DNA of 64,000 bases, taken from positions 17,364 to 81,363 of the forward strand of contig JBGULC010000023.1 of assembly GCA_045114775.1 (NCBI GenBank), read 5' to 3'. The notes beneath the pieces were generated by a model. It saw nothing but the letters and a program-made list of their open reading frames with translations. It searched no databases and was not told the origin of the DNA. The position numbers and the translations under genes were made by a program. Shown here piece by piece: positions 31,865 through 37,706 of this stretch (positions within the stretch are counted from its first letter, which is position 1; each line of letters starts with the position of its first letter). This stretch comes from Christensenellales bacterium. GTDB lineage: Bacteria; Bacillota; Clostridia; Christensenellales; CAG-138.

Positions 31865-32338
31865 TTACTCCGCGCCGACCAGCGGCAGGAAGTTGGATTC
31901 GTCCGTTTCGGTCGCCGCCGCAAGCTCCGAGACGAGCACCTGCCGCGCGGTCAGATACATCTTACGTTCACCCGCCGAAAGCCCGCGCTCGCGGTCCCGG
32001 CGCATCAGACACTTGACCACGTCCGCCACGACCATGATGTCGCCGCCGCGCAGCTTGTCGAGATTGTCGCGGTAACGCTGGTTCCAGTTGTCGCTCTCCT
32101 CTGAGCAGCCGTCCGCCTTTAGGAATCCGACGACTTTTTCGCACGTTTCTCCGTCCGCAAGCGCCCGGAGCCCGACCTCCGCGGCACGTTCCACGGGCAC
32201 CATCGCCGTCATGCGGCCGATGGTAAACCGCATGCGATAATACTGCGCGGTCTCTCCGAGTATGGTCTGTTCTTCGATCGCCTCCACCACGCCGACGCCG
32301 TGCATCGGATAGCAGACGAGATCCCCGATATGAAACAC
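31865..32338 (-). CDS. carD: CarD/CdnL-family RNA polymerase-binding regulator
   Basis: FHIGDLVCYPMHGVGVVEAIEE is typical of CarD_TRCF. The GTG start at 32338 lies 4-8 nt after SD AAGGAGGGGG. The track start (TTG 32365) would sit inside the promoter. Confidence 0.8.
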   Translation of the reverse strand: MFHIGDLVCYPMHGVGVVEAIEEQTILGETAQYYRMRFTIGRMTAMVPVERAAEVGLRALADGETCEKVVGFLKADGCSEESDNWNQRYRDNLDKLRGGDIMVVADVVKCLMRRDRERGLSAGERKMYLTARQVLVSELAAATETDESNFLPLVGAE

Positions 32339-32369
32339 GGGACCCCCTCCTTCGTATTCTCTCAAATAT

Positions 32370-32453: not shown

Positions 32454-32479
32454 AAAAAAAGCGCCGGAAAACCCGGTGC
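32454..32479 (-). terminator. Intrinsic terminator closing the radical-SAM operon
   Basis: Minus strand reads GCACCGG-GTTTT-CCGGCGC followed by T7, 15 nt after the rSAM stop codon. Confidence 0.6.
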
Positions 32480-32494
32480 AAACGGATCCTGCAT

Positions 32495-33574
32495 TCATTC
32501 CAGCGGATCGTCGCGGTAGTTCAGCAGGAACCGCGCGCTTTTCTTTTCGTAGAGCCGCTCCGCGAGCCCGTCCGCGATCGGAATCAGGATGCGTTCGTGC
32601 TCGCACTGCACCGGCGCGACCTCGTGCATCTTTCCGGTCAGCGAGAAGTTCAGGCAGGCGCAGTGATGGCGGCAGCGATCCGCGATCGCGCAGCCCTCGC
32701 AGTCCGGCTCCGGGTCCAGCGACGCGCGGTAGATCGCCCGCTGCTTTTCGCGGTCGATCCCGTGAAAGACGTCGCCCATGCAGTATTCCGGAACATCCAG
32801 AAACTGATTGCAGGGATAGATCCTTCCGTCCGGCGCGACCGACGGCTGCCGCATGCCGAGCTTGCATTCGAGGCACGGACGGTCATTGAGGTACGCCGAG
32901 ATCTTGGACAGAAAGTTCAGGTAATGCAGCGGCCGTTCGTCGTCGAAATGCCGCTCGCAAAGGTCTGCGATACGCGCGTACTGCCGTTCGAGCTCCGCCA
33001 TCGAATCGTCGTCCCATCCCGCGTCCGGTCGGTAGTCGATCGCCGTGTTGATCTTCGAAAACCCGCGTTCGTAAAGCCATTCGACCGACTCCGCCATGCG
33101 TCCGACCGTCGACGGCATCACGGTCTGCATCGCGACCGCCTTCGGCTGATAGGAAAGCAGCAGATCGATGATCGGCTCGAGCCGCGCCATCGTGGGGCTG
33201 CCGTCCCGTGTGACGCGCTGAGCGTCTTGCAGAAGCCCGTCGTGCGACAGGGCAATATCGAGTCTGTGTTCGTTCGCAAAGCGCAGAAACGGCTCGTCAA
33301 GAAGCGTACCGTTGGTCGTCATCTTGAAGCGCATCTCGGTGCCCGTCGCCTTCGCTTTCCCGACGGCATAGCGGCAGACGGTTTCGATCACGCCGCGTTC
33401 GAGCATCGGCTCTCCGCCGAACAGCGAAAACCCGTTTTTATCATGTCCGAACGTAAACGCAAGGTCGACGGCCTTCTTTGCCGTCTCCTCGGTCATGTGC
33501 GCTTTTCCGTGCGTTTCGTAACAGTAACGGCAGGCCAAATTACAGTCTGCCGTCAAATGCAATGTAAAATTCAT
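32495..33574 (-). CDS. Radical SAM/SPASM-domain enzyme (anSME-like architecture, no N-terminal RRE)
   Basis: CNLACRYC (CxxxCxxC) at residues 11-18. The C-terminus CEGCAIADRCRHHC is the CX2CX5CX3C SPASM signature, with further Cys residues. Its SD overlaps the stop codon of the upstream gene. Confidence 0.85.
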   Translation of the reverse strand: MNFTLHLTADCNLACRYCYETHGKAHMTEETAKKAVDLAFTFGHDKNGFSLFGGEPMLERGVIETVCRYAVGKAKATGTEMRFKMTTNGTLLDEPFLRFANEHRLDIALSHDGLLQDAQRVTRDGSPTMARLEPIIDLLLSYQPKAVAMQTVMPSTVGRMAESVEWLYERGFSKINTAIDYRPDAGWDDDSMAELERQYARIADLCERHFDDERPLHYLNFLSKISAYLNDRPCLECKLGMRQPSVAPDGRIYPCNQFLDVPEYCMGDVFHGIDREKQRAIYRASLDPEPDCEGCAIADRCRHHCACLNFSLTGKMHEVAPVQCEHERILIPIADGLAERLYEKKSARFLLNYRDDPLE

Positions 33575-33584
33575 ATCCGTCCCC

Positions 33585-34067
33585 TCACGGCATGTCGTCC
33601 GGAACCGCGATCTTGCCCATCAGCGCGGGCTCGCCCCCGCGTCCCTCCGGCTCGTCGGGCGTCGGCTCCTCCGCCGGATCGTTTTCTTCCTCCCAGGAAG
33701 GATCCGGCAGCGGCTCGCCGCCCAAAAGCGGATCGCCGTATTCGTCGCCGTACTCGTCGACCGCGATCTCCCCATCAAGAACGAGATCGTCTCCCGCCTG
33801 ACCGGCAGGCAGCTTGTCTCCGTCGCCCTCGTCGACCATCGGTTCGCCCGGTTCGACAAGATTCTCCGGCGGGATGTCCTCAATGCCGATCTCGCCGTCG
33901 AGCACCAGTTCCTCCCCGGGCGTGGGCTCCGGTATCGGAGCGCCTGCCGTCCGTGCTGCGCAGCCCGTGCCGCCGACAGCCATCAGAGCGGCGGCCGCGA
34001 GCGCCGTTCCCCGGATGAACTTCTTCGGATATTTCGGGTTGTATTGTTTGATTTTATACTGTTTCAT
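33585..34067 (-). CDS. Lipoprotein-like acidic Pro/Glu/Asp-rich protein, paralog B (160 aa), putative rSAM substrate
   Basis: MKQYKIKQYNPKYPKK, a hydrophobic LAAAALMAV core and GTGC. Three motifs: LVLDGEIGIED, LVLDGEIAVDE, ALMGKIAVPDD. SD AGGAG upstream. Confidence 0.6.
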   Translation of the reverse strand: MKQYKIKQYNPKYPKKFIRGTALAAAALMAVGGTGCAARTAGAPIPEPTPGEELVLDGEIGIEDIPPENLVEPGEPMVDEGDGDKLPAGQAGDDLVLDGEIAVDEYGDEYGDPLLGGEPLPDPSWEEENDPAEEPTPDEPEGRGGEPALMGKIAVPDDMP

Positions 34068-34082
34068 ATCGCGCTCCTGTCT

Positions 34083-34460
34083 TTACGGTTCGTCGATGAT
34101 CGCGACGTCGCCCATCAGCTCGATCTCCTCCGGCTCCGGGGTCTCCTCCGGCATGGCTACGCCGCCTGTGCGAAGATCCTCCGGCTCCGGGGTAATGTCC
34201 GGCAGCGGCGCGCCGGGCGTAACCGGCGGTTCGGGCTCCGGCGCGATATAGCCCTCAAGCCGGACCTCCTCCGGGGGAAGCGTCTGTTCGACGCCCGGCG
34301 TCGGCTCCTCCATCGGCACAATGCCGGTGGTTTGCGGCTGCCATGCCTTGCAGCCCGCAGACGTGCCGATCGTCATCAGTGCGGCAGCCGCCAGCGTCAG
34401 GCCTTTTAGGGCTTTTTTCGGATAATTCGGCTTGTAACCGGAAAGTTTTTGCTGTTTCAT
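34083..34460 (-). CDS. Lipoprotein-like acidic Pro/Glu-rich protein, paralog A (125 aa), putative rSAM substrate
   Basis: MKQQKLSGYKPNYPKK, LAAAALMTI and SAGC. Three motifs: VRLEGYIAPEP, LRTGGVAMPEE, ELMGDVAIIDEP. ATG 34460 lies 7 nt after SD AAGGAGA. Confidence 0.6.
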   Translation of the reverse strand: MKQQKLSGYKPNYPKKALKGLTLAAAALMTIGTSAGCKAWQPQTTGIVPMEEPTPGVEQTLPPEEVRLEGYIAPEPEPPVTPGAPLPDITPEPEDLRTGGVAMPEETPEPEEIELMGDVAIIDEP

Positions 34461-34574
34461 AGCGGTTTCTCCTTTGTGTGCCTCTGTCATAAAGACATTT
34501 CAAAGCATGAAAGTGTTACATACAAATCAAACTTTTTCTATCAAAAATACCGCACACGGCAGGAAAAGGTTGCA

Positions 34575-34600
34575 AAAAGGGGAAACGGTTTGTTTCCCCC
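34575..34600 (-). terminator. Intrinsic terminator after prs
   Basis: Minus strand reads GGGGAAAC-AAACCG-TTTCCCC followed by T5. Confidence 0.7.
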
Positions 34601-35740: not shown

Positions 35741-36439
35741 TCATTCTCTCCCGCCATCGTCCCCGCCGAGCGCGGCGCGCATCTTCTCGACGGCCTTTTT
35801 CTCGATGCGGGAGACGTAGCTTCTCGAAATGTCCAGAAGGTCTGCGACCTCACGCTGCGCCATCGGCGCGTCGCCCGAGAGACCGAAGCGCAGCGTCAGC
35901 ACGACGCGCTCGCGCTTTGTCAATACCTTTCGCATCGTTTCGGTGAGGATCGCCGCGTCGAGCCGTCCCTGCACCTGCTCGAAGATCGTGTCCGCTTCGG
36001 TGCAGACGAGATCCGCAAGCTTTAGCTCGTTCCCCTCCTTATCCGCCCCGACCGGCTCCTCGATTGAGACGGTCTCCACAAGCTTGCGCTCGCGCCGAAG
36101 GCTCATCAGGATCTCGTTTTCGATGCACCGCGCGGCGTACGCGGGGAGCGTGCCCTTCGACTCCGAAAACGTCGAGACCGCCTTGATAAGACCGATCGTG
36201 CCGATGCTGATCAGATCCTCGCGGTCGCGCTCCGCCTTCTGATACTTTTTCGCGATATGCGCGCAGAGCCGGAGGTTGTGCACGATCAGCGTTTCCCGCG
36301 CCTCCTCGGAGCCTTCGATCAGCCGCTGCACCCAAAGCTTTTCCTCCTCCGGGCTCAAGGGCTTCGGAAACGAACCGTTCGATCCGATCGCGCCGATAAA
36401 CGCGATCGACTGAAACAACAGCCATAAAAAAGAAAACAT
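35741..36439 (-). CDS. sigK: Sporulation sigma factor, SigK-like (pro-sigma), uninterrupted
   Basis: SFPKPLSPEEE pro-sequence junction and HNLRLCAHIAKKY region 2 favour SigK over SigE. ATG 36439 lies 7 nt after SD GGAGG. Confidence 0.75.
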   Translation of the reverse strand: MFSFLWLLFQSIAFIGAIGSNGSFPKPLSPEEEKLWVQRLIEGSEEARETLIVHNLRLCAHIAKKYQKAERDREDLISIGTIGLIKAVSTFSESKGTLPAYAARCIENEILMSLRRERKLVETVSIEEPVGADKEGNELKLADLVCTEADTIFEQVQGRLDAAILTETMRKVLTKRERVVLTLRFGLSGDAPMAQREVADLLDISRSYVSRIEKKAVEKMRAALGGDDGGRE

Positions 36440-36554
36440 ACCCTTTCCTCCCACGGATAGGGTATGTCGAATGACGGGGAATCAGAACAGATGCTTCGGC
36501 GGAACATCCGAGAATGCAGACCCGGTCTGCCAAAACGCGGTTTCGACGGACGGC

Positions 36555-37706
36555 TCAGTTCCAGTATTGCTTATACTTGTCCACGTTCGCCTGATGCTCC
36601 TCGTAGGTCTTTGCAAAGACCAGCGCACGCGTTTCGTTCGGATTCATGTTGCAGAAGAAGAGATACCCCTCTTCGAGGTACTGCTCGTCCGGATAGAGCG
36701 CCGCGTAGATCGCCGCCGCGCCGGGGTTCGAGATCGGTCCGATCGGCAGGCCCGGATTGAGATAGGTGTTGTAAGCGGACGTGATGGCCATCTCGTCCTT
36801 GCTGAAGGTATAGCGGTTCAGCCCCGTGATATAGTTCAGCGTGGCGCACGACTCCAACTTCATGCCCTCCCGGAGGCGGTTGTGGAACACCGCGGATACT
36901 CTCGGCATGTCCTCCGGCACGCTCGCCTCCCGCTCGATGATCGACGCGAGCGTCATGACCTCGTCGCGCGTCATACCGAGCTCCTGCGCGCGGCTGACCC
37001 ACTCGCCCTTGTAGACCTCGTAATAATGCGTCAGCATCCTGTCGAGGATCTCGGCCGGCGTGGAATCCGCATAGATCTCATAGGTGTCCGGGAACAGATA
37101 TCCTTCAAGCACATAGCGGCGCTCGGCAGCGTTCGGAAGCTCCGCAATGAACGAATACTTTTCAAACGCCGAAGCGTCGCGGCACATCGCAAGGAACGCG
37201 TCCGCATCGGTGTCGATGGCGTCGTTGCCGCGGATCTGCTTTGCGATCTCCTCGATCGTTTTTCCCTCGATCACGACGAACCGCGTCGTTCTGCGCGCCG
37301 GATTGCCCTCCGTCAGCACGTCGACGATCTCCGGGATCGTCATGTTCTTACTGAGGCGGTACGTGCCCGCCTTCAGATTGTTCGCCTTGCCGATAAAATC
37401 GACGTAGACCTTGAACGAGGCGCTGGACACGATCAGTCCCTTCTGCCCCTCGCCGCAGGCATGATAAAGAAGATCCGCGATCTGCCCCGCGGACGTATTC
37501 TGCGGGACGACGACCTCATAAGGGGTCGCATCCTCGGGATCGACGGCGGAGATGAAATGCGACAGCACGAACCGTACCGCAAAGACTACGGCAACCGCAA
37601 CCAGACCGATGCTCAGGATCCATGTTGCGATCGGTCTTGTATAACGCCAGAACCGCTGCCATCTCTGGCGCACGGCGCTCTGTTCGGTTTTGTCCGTCCG
37701 TTTCAT
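36555..37706 (-). CDS. mltG: Endolytic murein transglycosylase MltG (YceG family)
   Basis: N-terminal TM segment and the LEGYLFPDTYE motif. Confidence 0.85.
   Translation of the reverse strand: MKRTDKTEQSAVRQRWQRFWRYTRPIATWILSIGLVAVAVVFAVRFVLSHFISAVDPEDATPYEVVVPQNTSAGQIADLLYHACGEGQKGLIVSSASFKVYVDFIGKANNLKAGTYRLSKNMTIPEIVDVLTEGNPARRTTRFVVIEGKTIEEIAKQIRGNDAIDTDADAFLAMCRDASAFEKYSFIAELPNAAERRYVLEGYLFPDTYEIYADSTPAEILDRMLTHYYEVYKGEWVSRAQELGMTRDEVMTLASIIEREASVPEDMPRVSAVFHNRLREGMKLESCATLNYITGLNRYTFSKDEMAITSAYNTYLNPGLPIGPISNPGAAAIYAALYPDEQYLEEGYLFFCNMNPNETRALVFAKTYEEHQANVDKYKQYWN

Follow-up and report, generated by a model that had tools for sequence, protein, structure and literature searches.

What does a radical S-adenosylmethionine (SAM) enzyme with a SPASM domain do beside two small proteins that resemble lipoprotein precursors? 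This question is raised by a three-gene locus on the minus strand of a 64,000-nucleotide stretch of DNA from a Christensenellales bacterium (GenBank assembly GCA_045114775.1, contig JBGULC010000023.1, positions 17,364 to 81,363; hereafter, the window), in which the genes for two small proteins, A and B, precede the gene for the enzyme. We suggest that the locus is a two-component maturation module, in which the small proteins are ribosomal precursors with a type II signal peptide and the enzyme is their maturase, and we put the probability of this reading at roughly 55%.

In the model that we suggest, the enzyme would bind the precursors in the cytoplasm before export, and in most clades it would probably dock on a basic n-region motif, K-x3-Y-x-P-x-Y-P-[KR]-K. 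The 5'-deoxyadenosyl radical would then take a hydrogen within Gly-centered repeats of the form [L/P]-x-[L/T]-x-G-x-[V/I]-x-[V/I] (G motifs). The modified precursor would be exported by Sec, diacylglyceryl-modified by Lgt at an invariant Cys and cut by LspA, and the product, a modified, acidic, Pro/Glu-rich and disordered lipopeptide or lipoprotein, would sit at the membrane's outer face. The module would, thus, probably be the radical SAM counterpart of the modified peptides that use the lipoprotein pathway, i.e. the DAG-RiPPs made by multinuclear non-heme iron oxidase (MNIO) enzymes. A tentative extension, which we regard as possible but do not favor, is that this is the first radical SAM-dependent RiPP (a peptide made by the ribosome and altered after translation) of the lipoprotein pathway, that its signal peptide doubles as the docking leader, and that the G motifs receive a new Cys-independent modification (D-residues or an aliphatic cross-link).

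Co-occurrence of the enzyme and the small proteins

The pairing of the enzyme with the small partner proteins is obligate. When one genome per species in GTDB (596 Gb) was scanned with a degenerate DNA pattern for the N-terminus of the partners, for which we estimate ~0.5 chance matches, 31 stretches were found. Thirty of these are in metagenome-assembled genomes (MAGs) of Clostridia, Christensenellales or unclassified Bacillota, the majority of ruminant origin. The remaining one, in Bermanella, lacks a match to the hidden Markov model (HMM) of the small family and was taken as chance. With four stretches cut by the end of a block or contig, 26 were evaluable, and in all 26 GTDB-species loci the radical SAM gene (63-89% identity) lies directly downstream. 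Anchored on the enzyme, a metagenome scan returned 54 loci. In 39 of them, the enzyme start is complete, its identity reaches 61% or more, and the sequence extends 350 nt or more upstream. All 39 have one to three genes of the small family upstream, the nearest ending within about 100 nt of the enzyme start. The initial annotation, which was made from the sequence alone, had left room for small proteins that are widespread without an adjacent enzyme and had proposed a survey of gene neighborhoods. In the evaluable loci, no small protein was seen apart from the enzyme, and the enzyme clade at 61% identity or more was never seen without small proteins.

The module is present in at least three unrelated contexts: it follows a sigma factor, YunB and prs; it lies between a glutaminase and a major facilitator superfamily transporter on one side and an esterase on the other; or it follows CinA and recA. 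Across these contexts, only the small genes and the radical SAM gene are in common, so that no other candidate substrate travels with the enzyme. This recurrence in other flanking contexts agrees with the self-contained unit described initially. Its composition is like that of its flanks (GC content about 0.6 in both), and an origin as a horizontal island is, therefore, unsupported. The module is uncurated and known only from uncultured MAGs of Clostridia/Christensenellales type, largely from ruminants; a cultured host was not found among the matches, and all named matches in the protein searches are labelled "MAG: Clostridia bacterium".

Candidate precursors with a lipoprotein signal and Gly-centered repeats

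A and B are paralogs, as initially proposed (BLASTP, E = 3e-11; 46% identity across the first 91 aligned columns, i.e. the N-terminal halves). Each contains a single Cys (C37 in A and C36 in B) in a lipobox-like position and each has what rule-based assignment supports as a lipoprotein-type signal peptide, and on both points the initial annotation stands. Neither protein has a match at E <= 1 in NCBIfam r20 or Pfam, curated lipoprotein partner families included. A search with B returned 84 homologous proteins, the few with a named source being from "Clostridia bacterium" MAGs. In the alignment, conservation is concentrated in an M-K-Q-x-K-x3-Y-x-P-x-Y-P-K-K N-terminus, a hydrophobic stretch leading to the invariant Cys, and two blocks, ELVLDGEVAI and EPALMGKIAVP.

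In the family at large, Y-x-P-x-Y-P is present in 117 of 119 unique partners, and in those 117 the conservation of its two Tyr and two Pro is 100%, with [KR] and K following. Residues 1-20 carry a net charge of +5 to +7, and 113 of 117 proteins have their Cys at position 36-37, after a PROSITE-type lipobox; this Cys is preceded by a hydrophobic stretch of ~15 residues and, in nearly all of ~120 unique sequences, by [AGS] at -1. In 105 of 121 unique partners it is the only Cys. The mature region is acidic and Pro-rich, Glu making up 17% of it, Pro 14% and Asp 10%, and aromatic residues come to about 1.5% (Y 0.9%, F 0.3%, W 0.3%). The enzyme has a mean identity of 78%, while the partners reach 37% over their whole length and 55% within the signal-peptide region. 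The exceptional conservation of the n-region, together with the finding that its pattern lies only beside this enzyme in 596 Gb, argues that the enzyme reads the n-region before export.

The second hallmark of the family is the G motif. The strict pattern [LIVMTP]x[LIVMT]xGx[IVLM]x[IVLMYAP] occurs six times in A and B together compared to 0.26 +/- 0.51 times in 1000 composition-preserving shuffles. The repeat motif reported initially is, thus, upheld by these six instances, while one of the copies then listed, LRTGGVAM, is only a weaker seventh copy. In the whole family, the strict motif occurs 309 times versus 12.9 +/- 3.7 in shuffles (24-fold enrichment), with one to seven copies per protein, and the final copy ends 1-7 residues before the C-terminus in 100 of 117 partners (3-7 residues in 99). 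A looser scan in which the Gly was fixed gave 376 instances with the logo [L47/P31]-x-[L63/T20]-x-G-x-[V46/I42]-x-[V38/I33]-[P/D/E]-[E/D]-P, in which V/I on average make up 88% at +2 and 71% at +4, and positions -1 and +1 are variable. By this pattern, the motif is a strand in which hydrophobic residues alternate around a central Gly. In an AlphaFold2 model of the small protein (32-sequence alignment), only the signal-peptide helix (residues 15-31) is formed and the rest is disordered (predicted local distance difference test, pLDDT, 56; predicted template modeling score, pTM, 0.13). The disorder of the mature region makes the motifs unlike strands of a folded domain, and the idea that they form a beta-sheet domain is unsupported. 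The number of motif copies, their C-terminal placement, the disorder and the faster divergence of the partners relative to the enzyme are all precursor-like features, and the repeated, C-terminally biased G motifs appear to be the best candidate modification sites.

Some loci encode a third paralog, which we refer to as type C (about 82-86 residues), between the two lipoprotein genes (L001, 5740-5997; L017, reverse strand, 2570-2818; also L033, L060 and L061). It has a degenerate version of the N-terminal motif and keeps an LHAVGIVP motif, with a conserved soluble EEALAILRSPA-EF stretch in place of the hydrophobic segment and Cys. Type C may act as a decoy in the cytoplasm, have a regulatory role or serve as a soluble substrate.

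Co-occurrence documents a functional link and is not proof of a substrate relationship. Thus, the small proteins might instead be co-transcribed surface lipoproteins, or else membrane tethers or regulators that bind the enzyme by their cytoplasmic N-terminal peptide, while the enzyme acts elsewhere, its true target being another protein, a lipid or a metabolite; we consider both parts of this alternative unlikely. The enzyme shows a conservation across species (73-89%) that is unusual among RiPP enzymes, it often lies amid housekeeping genes (prs, recA and a sigma factor), and an uncleaved signal would leave the N-terminal motif in the cytoplasm, all of which would suit a partner that is not modified. 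However, the absence of any other co-travelling candidate substrate speaks against a target elsewhere, the small proteins resemble typical precursors in their variable copy number, paralogs, short C-terminal repeats, disorder and fast divergence, and proteins as disordered as the AlphaFold2 model predicts cannot be chaperones similar to PqqD or to a RiPP recognition element (RRE). We, therefore, infer that the small proteins are the substrates.

An uncurated clade of SPASM enzymes and its possible chemistry

If the small proteins are substrates, the next question is what kind of enzyme acts on them. The radical SAM and SPASM Cys motifs and the lack of an N-terminal RRE, all read from the sequence initially, are confirmed by the sequence and by an AlphaFold2 model, which has a confident radical SAM/SPASM fold (pLDDT 90.3). 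The model opens with beta-1 of the barrel and has no winged helix-turn-helix, and therefore the enzyme lacks an N-terminal RRE. The SPASM domain (TIGR04085) scores 40 bits, above the cut-off of 27. Twelve Cys (11, 15, 18, 234, 237, 255, 292, 295, 301, 305, 307 and 324) recur in at least 115 of 116 homologs, and nine of the twelve are strictly invariant. These twelve suffice for three fully ligated clusters with C307 to spare; the assignment of single Cys to clusters is one that we infer. The enzyme sequence has no signal peptide. The public gene call (P0086; NCBI and Logan) is 333 residues long, begins at M27 and drops the CX3CX2C motif, and the calls for several relatives do likewise. The 359-residue start is the conserved one.

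No curated radical SAM system model in NCBIfam reaches its cut-off with this enzyme, in line with the original statement that it matches no known maturase system. The best model is that of the PapB family (NF047865; 192.8 bits versus a cut-off of 340), followed by the Nif11, SCIFF and QhpD maturases, all far under their cut-offs. SCIFF maturase (TIGR03974) scores 139.6 bits versus 425, and the partners are Cys-poor whereas a SCIFF maturase is expected beside a six-Cys peptide. anSME (TIGR03942) scores 70.4 bits versus 349.45, so that the clustering with anaerobic sulfatase maturases considered initially did not materialize, and the cyclophane synthase HMMs for AmcB, YhhB and FxsB score 45-52 bits versus cut-offs of 370-445. 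On these scores, we rejected membership in the anSME, SCIFF, QhpD, PapB and cyclophane-synthase families. Membership among the cyclopropyl synthases (TvgB/TigE) was rejected because the enzyme lacks the GYW motif, and a PapB-type substrate and leader were rejected because the partners lack repeated Cys...Asp/Glu (CX3D) pairs and the enzyme lacks an RRE. Among solved structures, the thioether synthase CteB comes nearest in sequence (E = 4e-33), and Foldseek gives template modeling (TM) scores of 0.82 for CteB, 0.81 for anSME, 0.77 for ChlB (9gm3) and 0.67 for TigE (13% identity).

These relationships make a PapB-like thioether an alternative that has to be weighed. In this case, the invariant Cys would not be lipidated but would donate its thiol to the carbon next to the carboxylate of a downstream Asp/Glu, and the product would be a membrane-anchored or released macrocycle. 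PapB is the best HMM not only for the enzyme but also for ten sampled relatives, the next models describe thioether formers as well, and CteB is the closest solved structure. Yet, every PapB score is well under the cut-off. PapB needs a Cys N-terminal to the acidic acceptor and tolerates variable spacing (PMC12373016), and the precursors here, with one Cys followed by a region with 24-30% Asp+Glu, fit this order rule; nevertheless, the Cys lies in a canonical lipobox setting, no acidic residue is at a fixed distance from it, and the Gly motifs and their repetition would be left unexplained. Finally, the type C paralogs keep the N-terminal and G motifs but have neither the hydrophobic segment nor the Cys. 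Altogether, we regard a thioether at this Cys as decidedly unlikely. By contrast, motifs without Cys or aromatic residues, the variable -1 and +1 positions and the Cys-less type C paralogs favor a Cys-independent reaction over a thioether, and the chemistry is, going by the motifs, probably Cys-independent. As a guess, the modified site would be the invariant Gly or the V/I two residues on, and the reaction C-alpha epimerization or a short C-C or C-O link within the motif. The epimerization or cross-link at Gly-x-Ile/Val suggested initially is likewise conjecture.

More distant relatives of the enzyme indicate which partner features persist. A full HMMER scan of 1.84 billion representatives (50% clustering; E <= 1e-30) returned 292 relatives, which form a continuum from 51% to about 30% identity, mostly have about 350-390 residues and start at residue 1. 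Ten sampled relatives (30-51% identity) all score best with the PapB model (155-218 bits) and are under every curated cut-off, and therefore the enzyme belongs to a large uncurated RRE-less clade. Upstream of the relatives at 51% (L097), 42% (L095) and 38% identity (L098) lies a small protein with a lipoprotein signal and G motifs in Ser/Thr-rich linkers. At 47% identity (L086-L089), the upstream gene encodes a 290-residue lipoprotein with a Y..YP N-terminal motif and one degenerate LKLDGY motif; at 34% (L102), a lipobox protein with three G motifs, the last one C-terminal, and no YP motif; and at 36% (L101) and 33% (L100), a large unrelated protein. Among these partners, the lipoprotein signal and the Gly-centered motif are thus the most persistent features, while the YP motif is widespread and not universal. 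The partners in L086-L089 (288-293 residues) also have an extra 20-residue cytoplasmic segment, a Ser-rich linker and an uncharacterized C-terminal domain with three Cys; this domain is probably globular, and the proteins have no Pfam or NCBIfam match.

These comparisons also bear on the idea that the N-terminal Y-x-P-x-Y-P-K-K is itself the modified core (e.g. a Tyr-centered three-residue cyclophane, with the cleaved signal peptide or its fragment as the product), or a pure export-targeting motif, which is very improbable: it is the most conserved stretch (117 of 119 sequences), Y-P-K resembles the aromatic-X-X motifs of triceptides, and RRE-less SPASM cyclophane synthases (ChlB, AmcB and YhhB) are detectable relatives, but wider relatives can have K, R, T, P, N, D, A or Q at the third position after Tyr, some relatives lack the first Tyr, the motif is missing from the L102 partner while the G motifs are still there, and the cyclophane-synthase HMMs give about 49-52 bits versus cut-offs of 425-445.

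Several findings weigh against maturation of the small proteins on their G motifs as we propose it. All close curated relatives of the enzyme (PapB, Nif11, SCIFF and QhpD) form Cys thioethers, for which the mature region has no spare Cys. No radical SAM epimerase (YydG/EpeE, PoyD) is among the best 25 of 77 NCBIfam matches, the 9 PDB sequence matches or the 50 Foldseek matches listed. The 290-residue partner in the 47% clade probably contains a globular domain, and its G motifs amount to a single degenerate one at most. The absence of the YP motif from the partner of the 34% clade means that this motif is not a universal docking site. Also, the assignment as lipoproteins is rule-based (basic n-region, h-region and [AGS]-C at 36-37).

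Among known systems, the closest in logic are the DAG-RiPPs, RiPP-lipoprotein hybrids made by MNIO enzymes (DybA/DybH and NedABC) and published in 2025-26 (PNAS 2026; PMC13056109). That work describes RiPP precursors with a lipobox whose modification takes place in the cytoplasm and is followed by lipidation (PMC13056109), and its authors suggest that other enzyme families may take the same route, radical SAM enzymes being unmentioned there (PMC13056109). The initial description of peptide-modifying chemistry on Sec/lipoprotein substrates as unusual was, therefore, overstated, since the MNIO DAG-RiPPs came before (PMC13056109). In our search of the literature for curated or published radical SAM-lipoprotein systems, only this MNIO work was found. 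As in the DAG-RiPP systems, the signal peptide of the precursors is of SPII type and its lipobox Cys is invariant (rule-based in our case), the modifying enzyme, here a putative one, is cytoplasmic, has no signal peptide and is encoded beside them, and the target motif, here a candidate one, lies near the C-terminus. In both systems, here by prediction, the housekeeping lipoprotein pathway takes care of export and lipidation, and so the gene cluster is minimal. However, the enzyme is a radical SAM/SPASM protein instead of an MNIO, the candidate motif has no Cys, the n-region has a conserved motif, the host belongs to a Gram-positive-type lineage of Clostridia, and lipidation is predicted only.

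anSME and AtsB are similar to our enzyme in being RRE-less radical SAM/SPASM proteins of about 360-370 residues, and anSME is the second-best structural match. They modify Sec-exported sulfatases in the cytoplasm before export. Unlike their case, the partner here is adjacent and obligate, and A and B have no C/S-x-P/A-x-R sulfatase motif. Because MNIO DAG-RiPPs have been published and because anSME and AtsB act on Sec-exported sulfatases, the pairing is not categorically new. What is new here is the class of enzyme on this route, a Cys-free, Gly-centered repeat as putative substrate near a clade of thioether formers, the n-region motif, and the lineage.

Three further groups of SPASM enzymes are informative. 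PapB, CteB, SCIFF, QhpD and Nif11 maturases are the best relatives by sequence and fold and share the three-cluster architecture, and PapB-type enzymes act on repeated short motifs in acidic peptides, as our enzyme putatively does. However, PapB recognizes its leader via an RRE (PMC12373016), which is absent here, the PapB score is 193 bits versus 340, and the substrates have no CX3D/E repeats and only the lipobox Cys. TvgB and TigE are cyclopropylglycine synthases that act on repeated TVGG/TIGSVS motifs (PMC9062424, PMC10878394). Like them, our enzyme is a SPASM protein whose candidate sites have an aliphatic Val/Ile near Gly in a repeated short motif with no Cys or aromatic partner. In cyclopropyl synthases, the GYW motif is strictly conserved and its Tyr ligates auxiliary cluster I (PMC10878394), while our enzyme has no GYW; in addition, TigE has an RRE, the TM-score is low (0.67), and the register is G-x-V in place of V/I-G. 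ChlB and the triceptide maturases are of similar size and have no RRE, and ChlB, as summarized in the cited sources, binds the precursor leader directly, a precedent for a short N-terminal docking motif (9gm3; PMC12912966, ref. 52). By contrast, the mature regions here are nearly aromatic-free and the HMM scores are far under the cut-offs.

Because the putative substrates are Cys-free and nearly aromatic-free and the relatives of the enzyme form thioethers, a new SPASM reaction or an RRE-free recognition of the n-region is plausible. If our model is correct, the logic of modification in the cytoplasm followed by the lipoprotein pathway would extend from MNIOs and Gram-negative bacteria to radical SAM enzymes and anaerobic Firmicutes. 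Under the tentative extension given above, the system would also mark out, among uncultured Clostridia of rumen and gut, a large RRE-less SPASM clade that is uncurated. The orphan clade of 292 representatives gains a testable partner. With only two components, the module lends itself to easy testing by co-expression.

Layout of the locus and neighboring genes

The locus comprises three packed minus-strand genes separated by gaps of 15 nt (A to B) and 10 nt (B to enzyme; Table 1). Gene A starts at an ATG with an AAGGAG Shine-Dalgarno sequence 8 nt before it, while the mechanical open reading frame reaches 34490. The Shine-Dalgarno sequence of the enzyme gene, GAGGGG, overlaps the TGA stop of B, and the translation start of the enzyme is probably coupled to B. 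The packing, the gaps and this overlap had been described initially and agree with the open reading frame coordinates. Terminator-like hairpins were likewise found on both sides, as initially described. By contrast, the TTGATA-16-TATGTA promoter proposed initially does not pass a sigma-70 scan, its -10 hexamer matching at 3 of 6 positions, and in the leader as a whole the scan gave no site.

Table 1. Positions of genes, motifs and expression signals of the module within the window
Feature	Position	Strand	Description
Leader/promoter region	34461..34578	minus	AT-richer, GC about 0.50
Upstream module boundary	34579..34600	minus	Terminator-like hairpin and T-run at the end of upstream prs; 7-bp stem, 4 GC pairs
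Small protein A gene (125 residues)	34083..34460	minus	Lipoprotein-type precursor, type A paralog; C-terminal end ELMGDVAIIDEP
Y-x-P-x-Y-P-K-K codons of A	34413..34436	minus	Pattern scan: 2 matches in the window, 0 expected
Lipobox Cys37 of A	34350..34352	minus	S-A-G-C, only Cys; from the sequence
G motif A1	34311..34337	minus	PQTTGIVPM; motif scan
G motif A2	34239..34265	minus	VRLEGYIAP; motif scan
G motif A3	34098..34124	minus	IELMGDVAI, 4 residues short of the C-terminus; motif scan
Small protein B gene (160 residues)	33585..34067	minus	Lipoprotein-type precursor, type B paralog adjoining the enzyme gene; C-terminal end EPALMGKIAVPDDMP
Y-x-P-x-Y-P-K-K codons of B	34020..34043	minus	Same pattern scan as for A
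Lipobox Cys36 of B	33960..33962	minus	G-T-G-C, only Cys, invariant in the family; alignment
G motif B1	33882..33908	minus	LVLDGEIGI; motif scan
G motif B2	33759..33785	minus	LVLDGEIAV; motif scan
G motif B3	33603..33629	minus	PALMGKIAV, 5 residues short of the C-terminus; motif scan
Radical SAM/SPASM enzyme gene (359 residues)	32495..33574	minus	No RRE domain
CX3CX2C radical SAM motif	33521..33544	minus	C11, C15, C18; CNLACRYC, residues 11-18
SPASM CX2CX5CX3C	32660..32701	minus	C292, C295, C301, C305 (residues 292-305), then invariant C307 and C324
Hairpin closing the module	32464..32476	minus	Terminator-like, with T-run; hairpin scan

The only strong promoter near the module (32399-32370, minus strand; 12/12 sigma-70 match, TTGACA-18-TATAAT) belongs to a downstream gene for a CarD-like protein (31865-32365), which lies directly beyond the module terminator. 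In the main clade (L001-L004), the gene order is YceG/MltG, a sigma-70-family factor (r2/r4), YunB in some, prs and then the module, and genes of this order are present in the window at 35741-36454 and 36555-37706 (minus strand). This neighborhood is possibly linked to sporulation in the main clade; it is not common to the other two contexts.

Two MAGs have the module or small gene twice, on different contigs (L024 and L038 in Tb.RUG.388; L032 and L037 in RUG11425), which may reflect true duplication or a mixture of strains within the bin. In a MAG from sheep rumen (L016), the module is followed, ~1.4 kb further downstream, by a second radical SAM gene (1980-2921), a distant one whose product is 23% identical to the query. 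Rfam has no family near the module or in the leader; the sole match above the gathering threshold in the whole window is a lysine riboswitch aptamer (RF00168) at 820-995 on the plus strand, with 86.6 bits.

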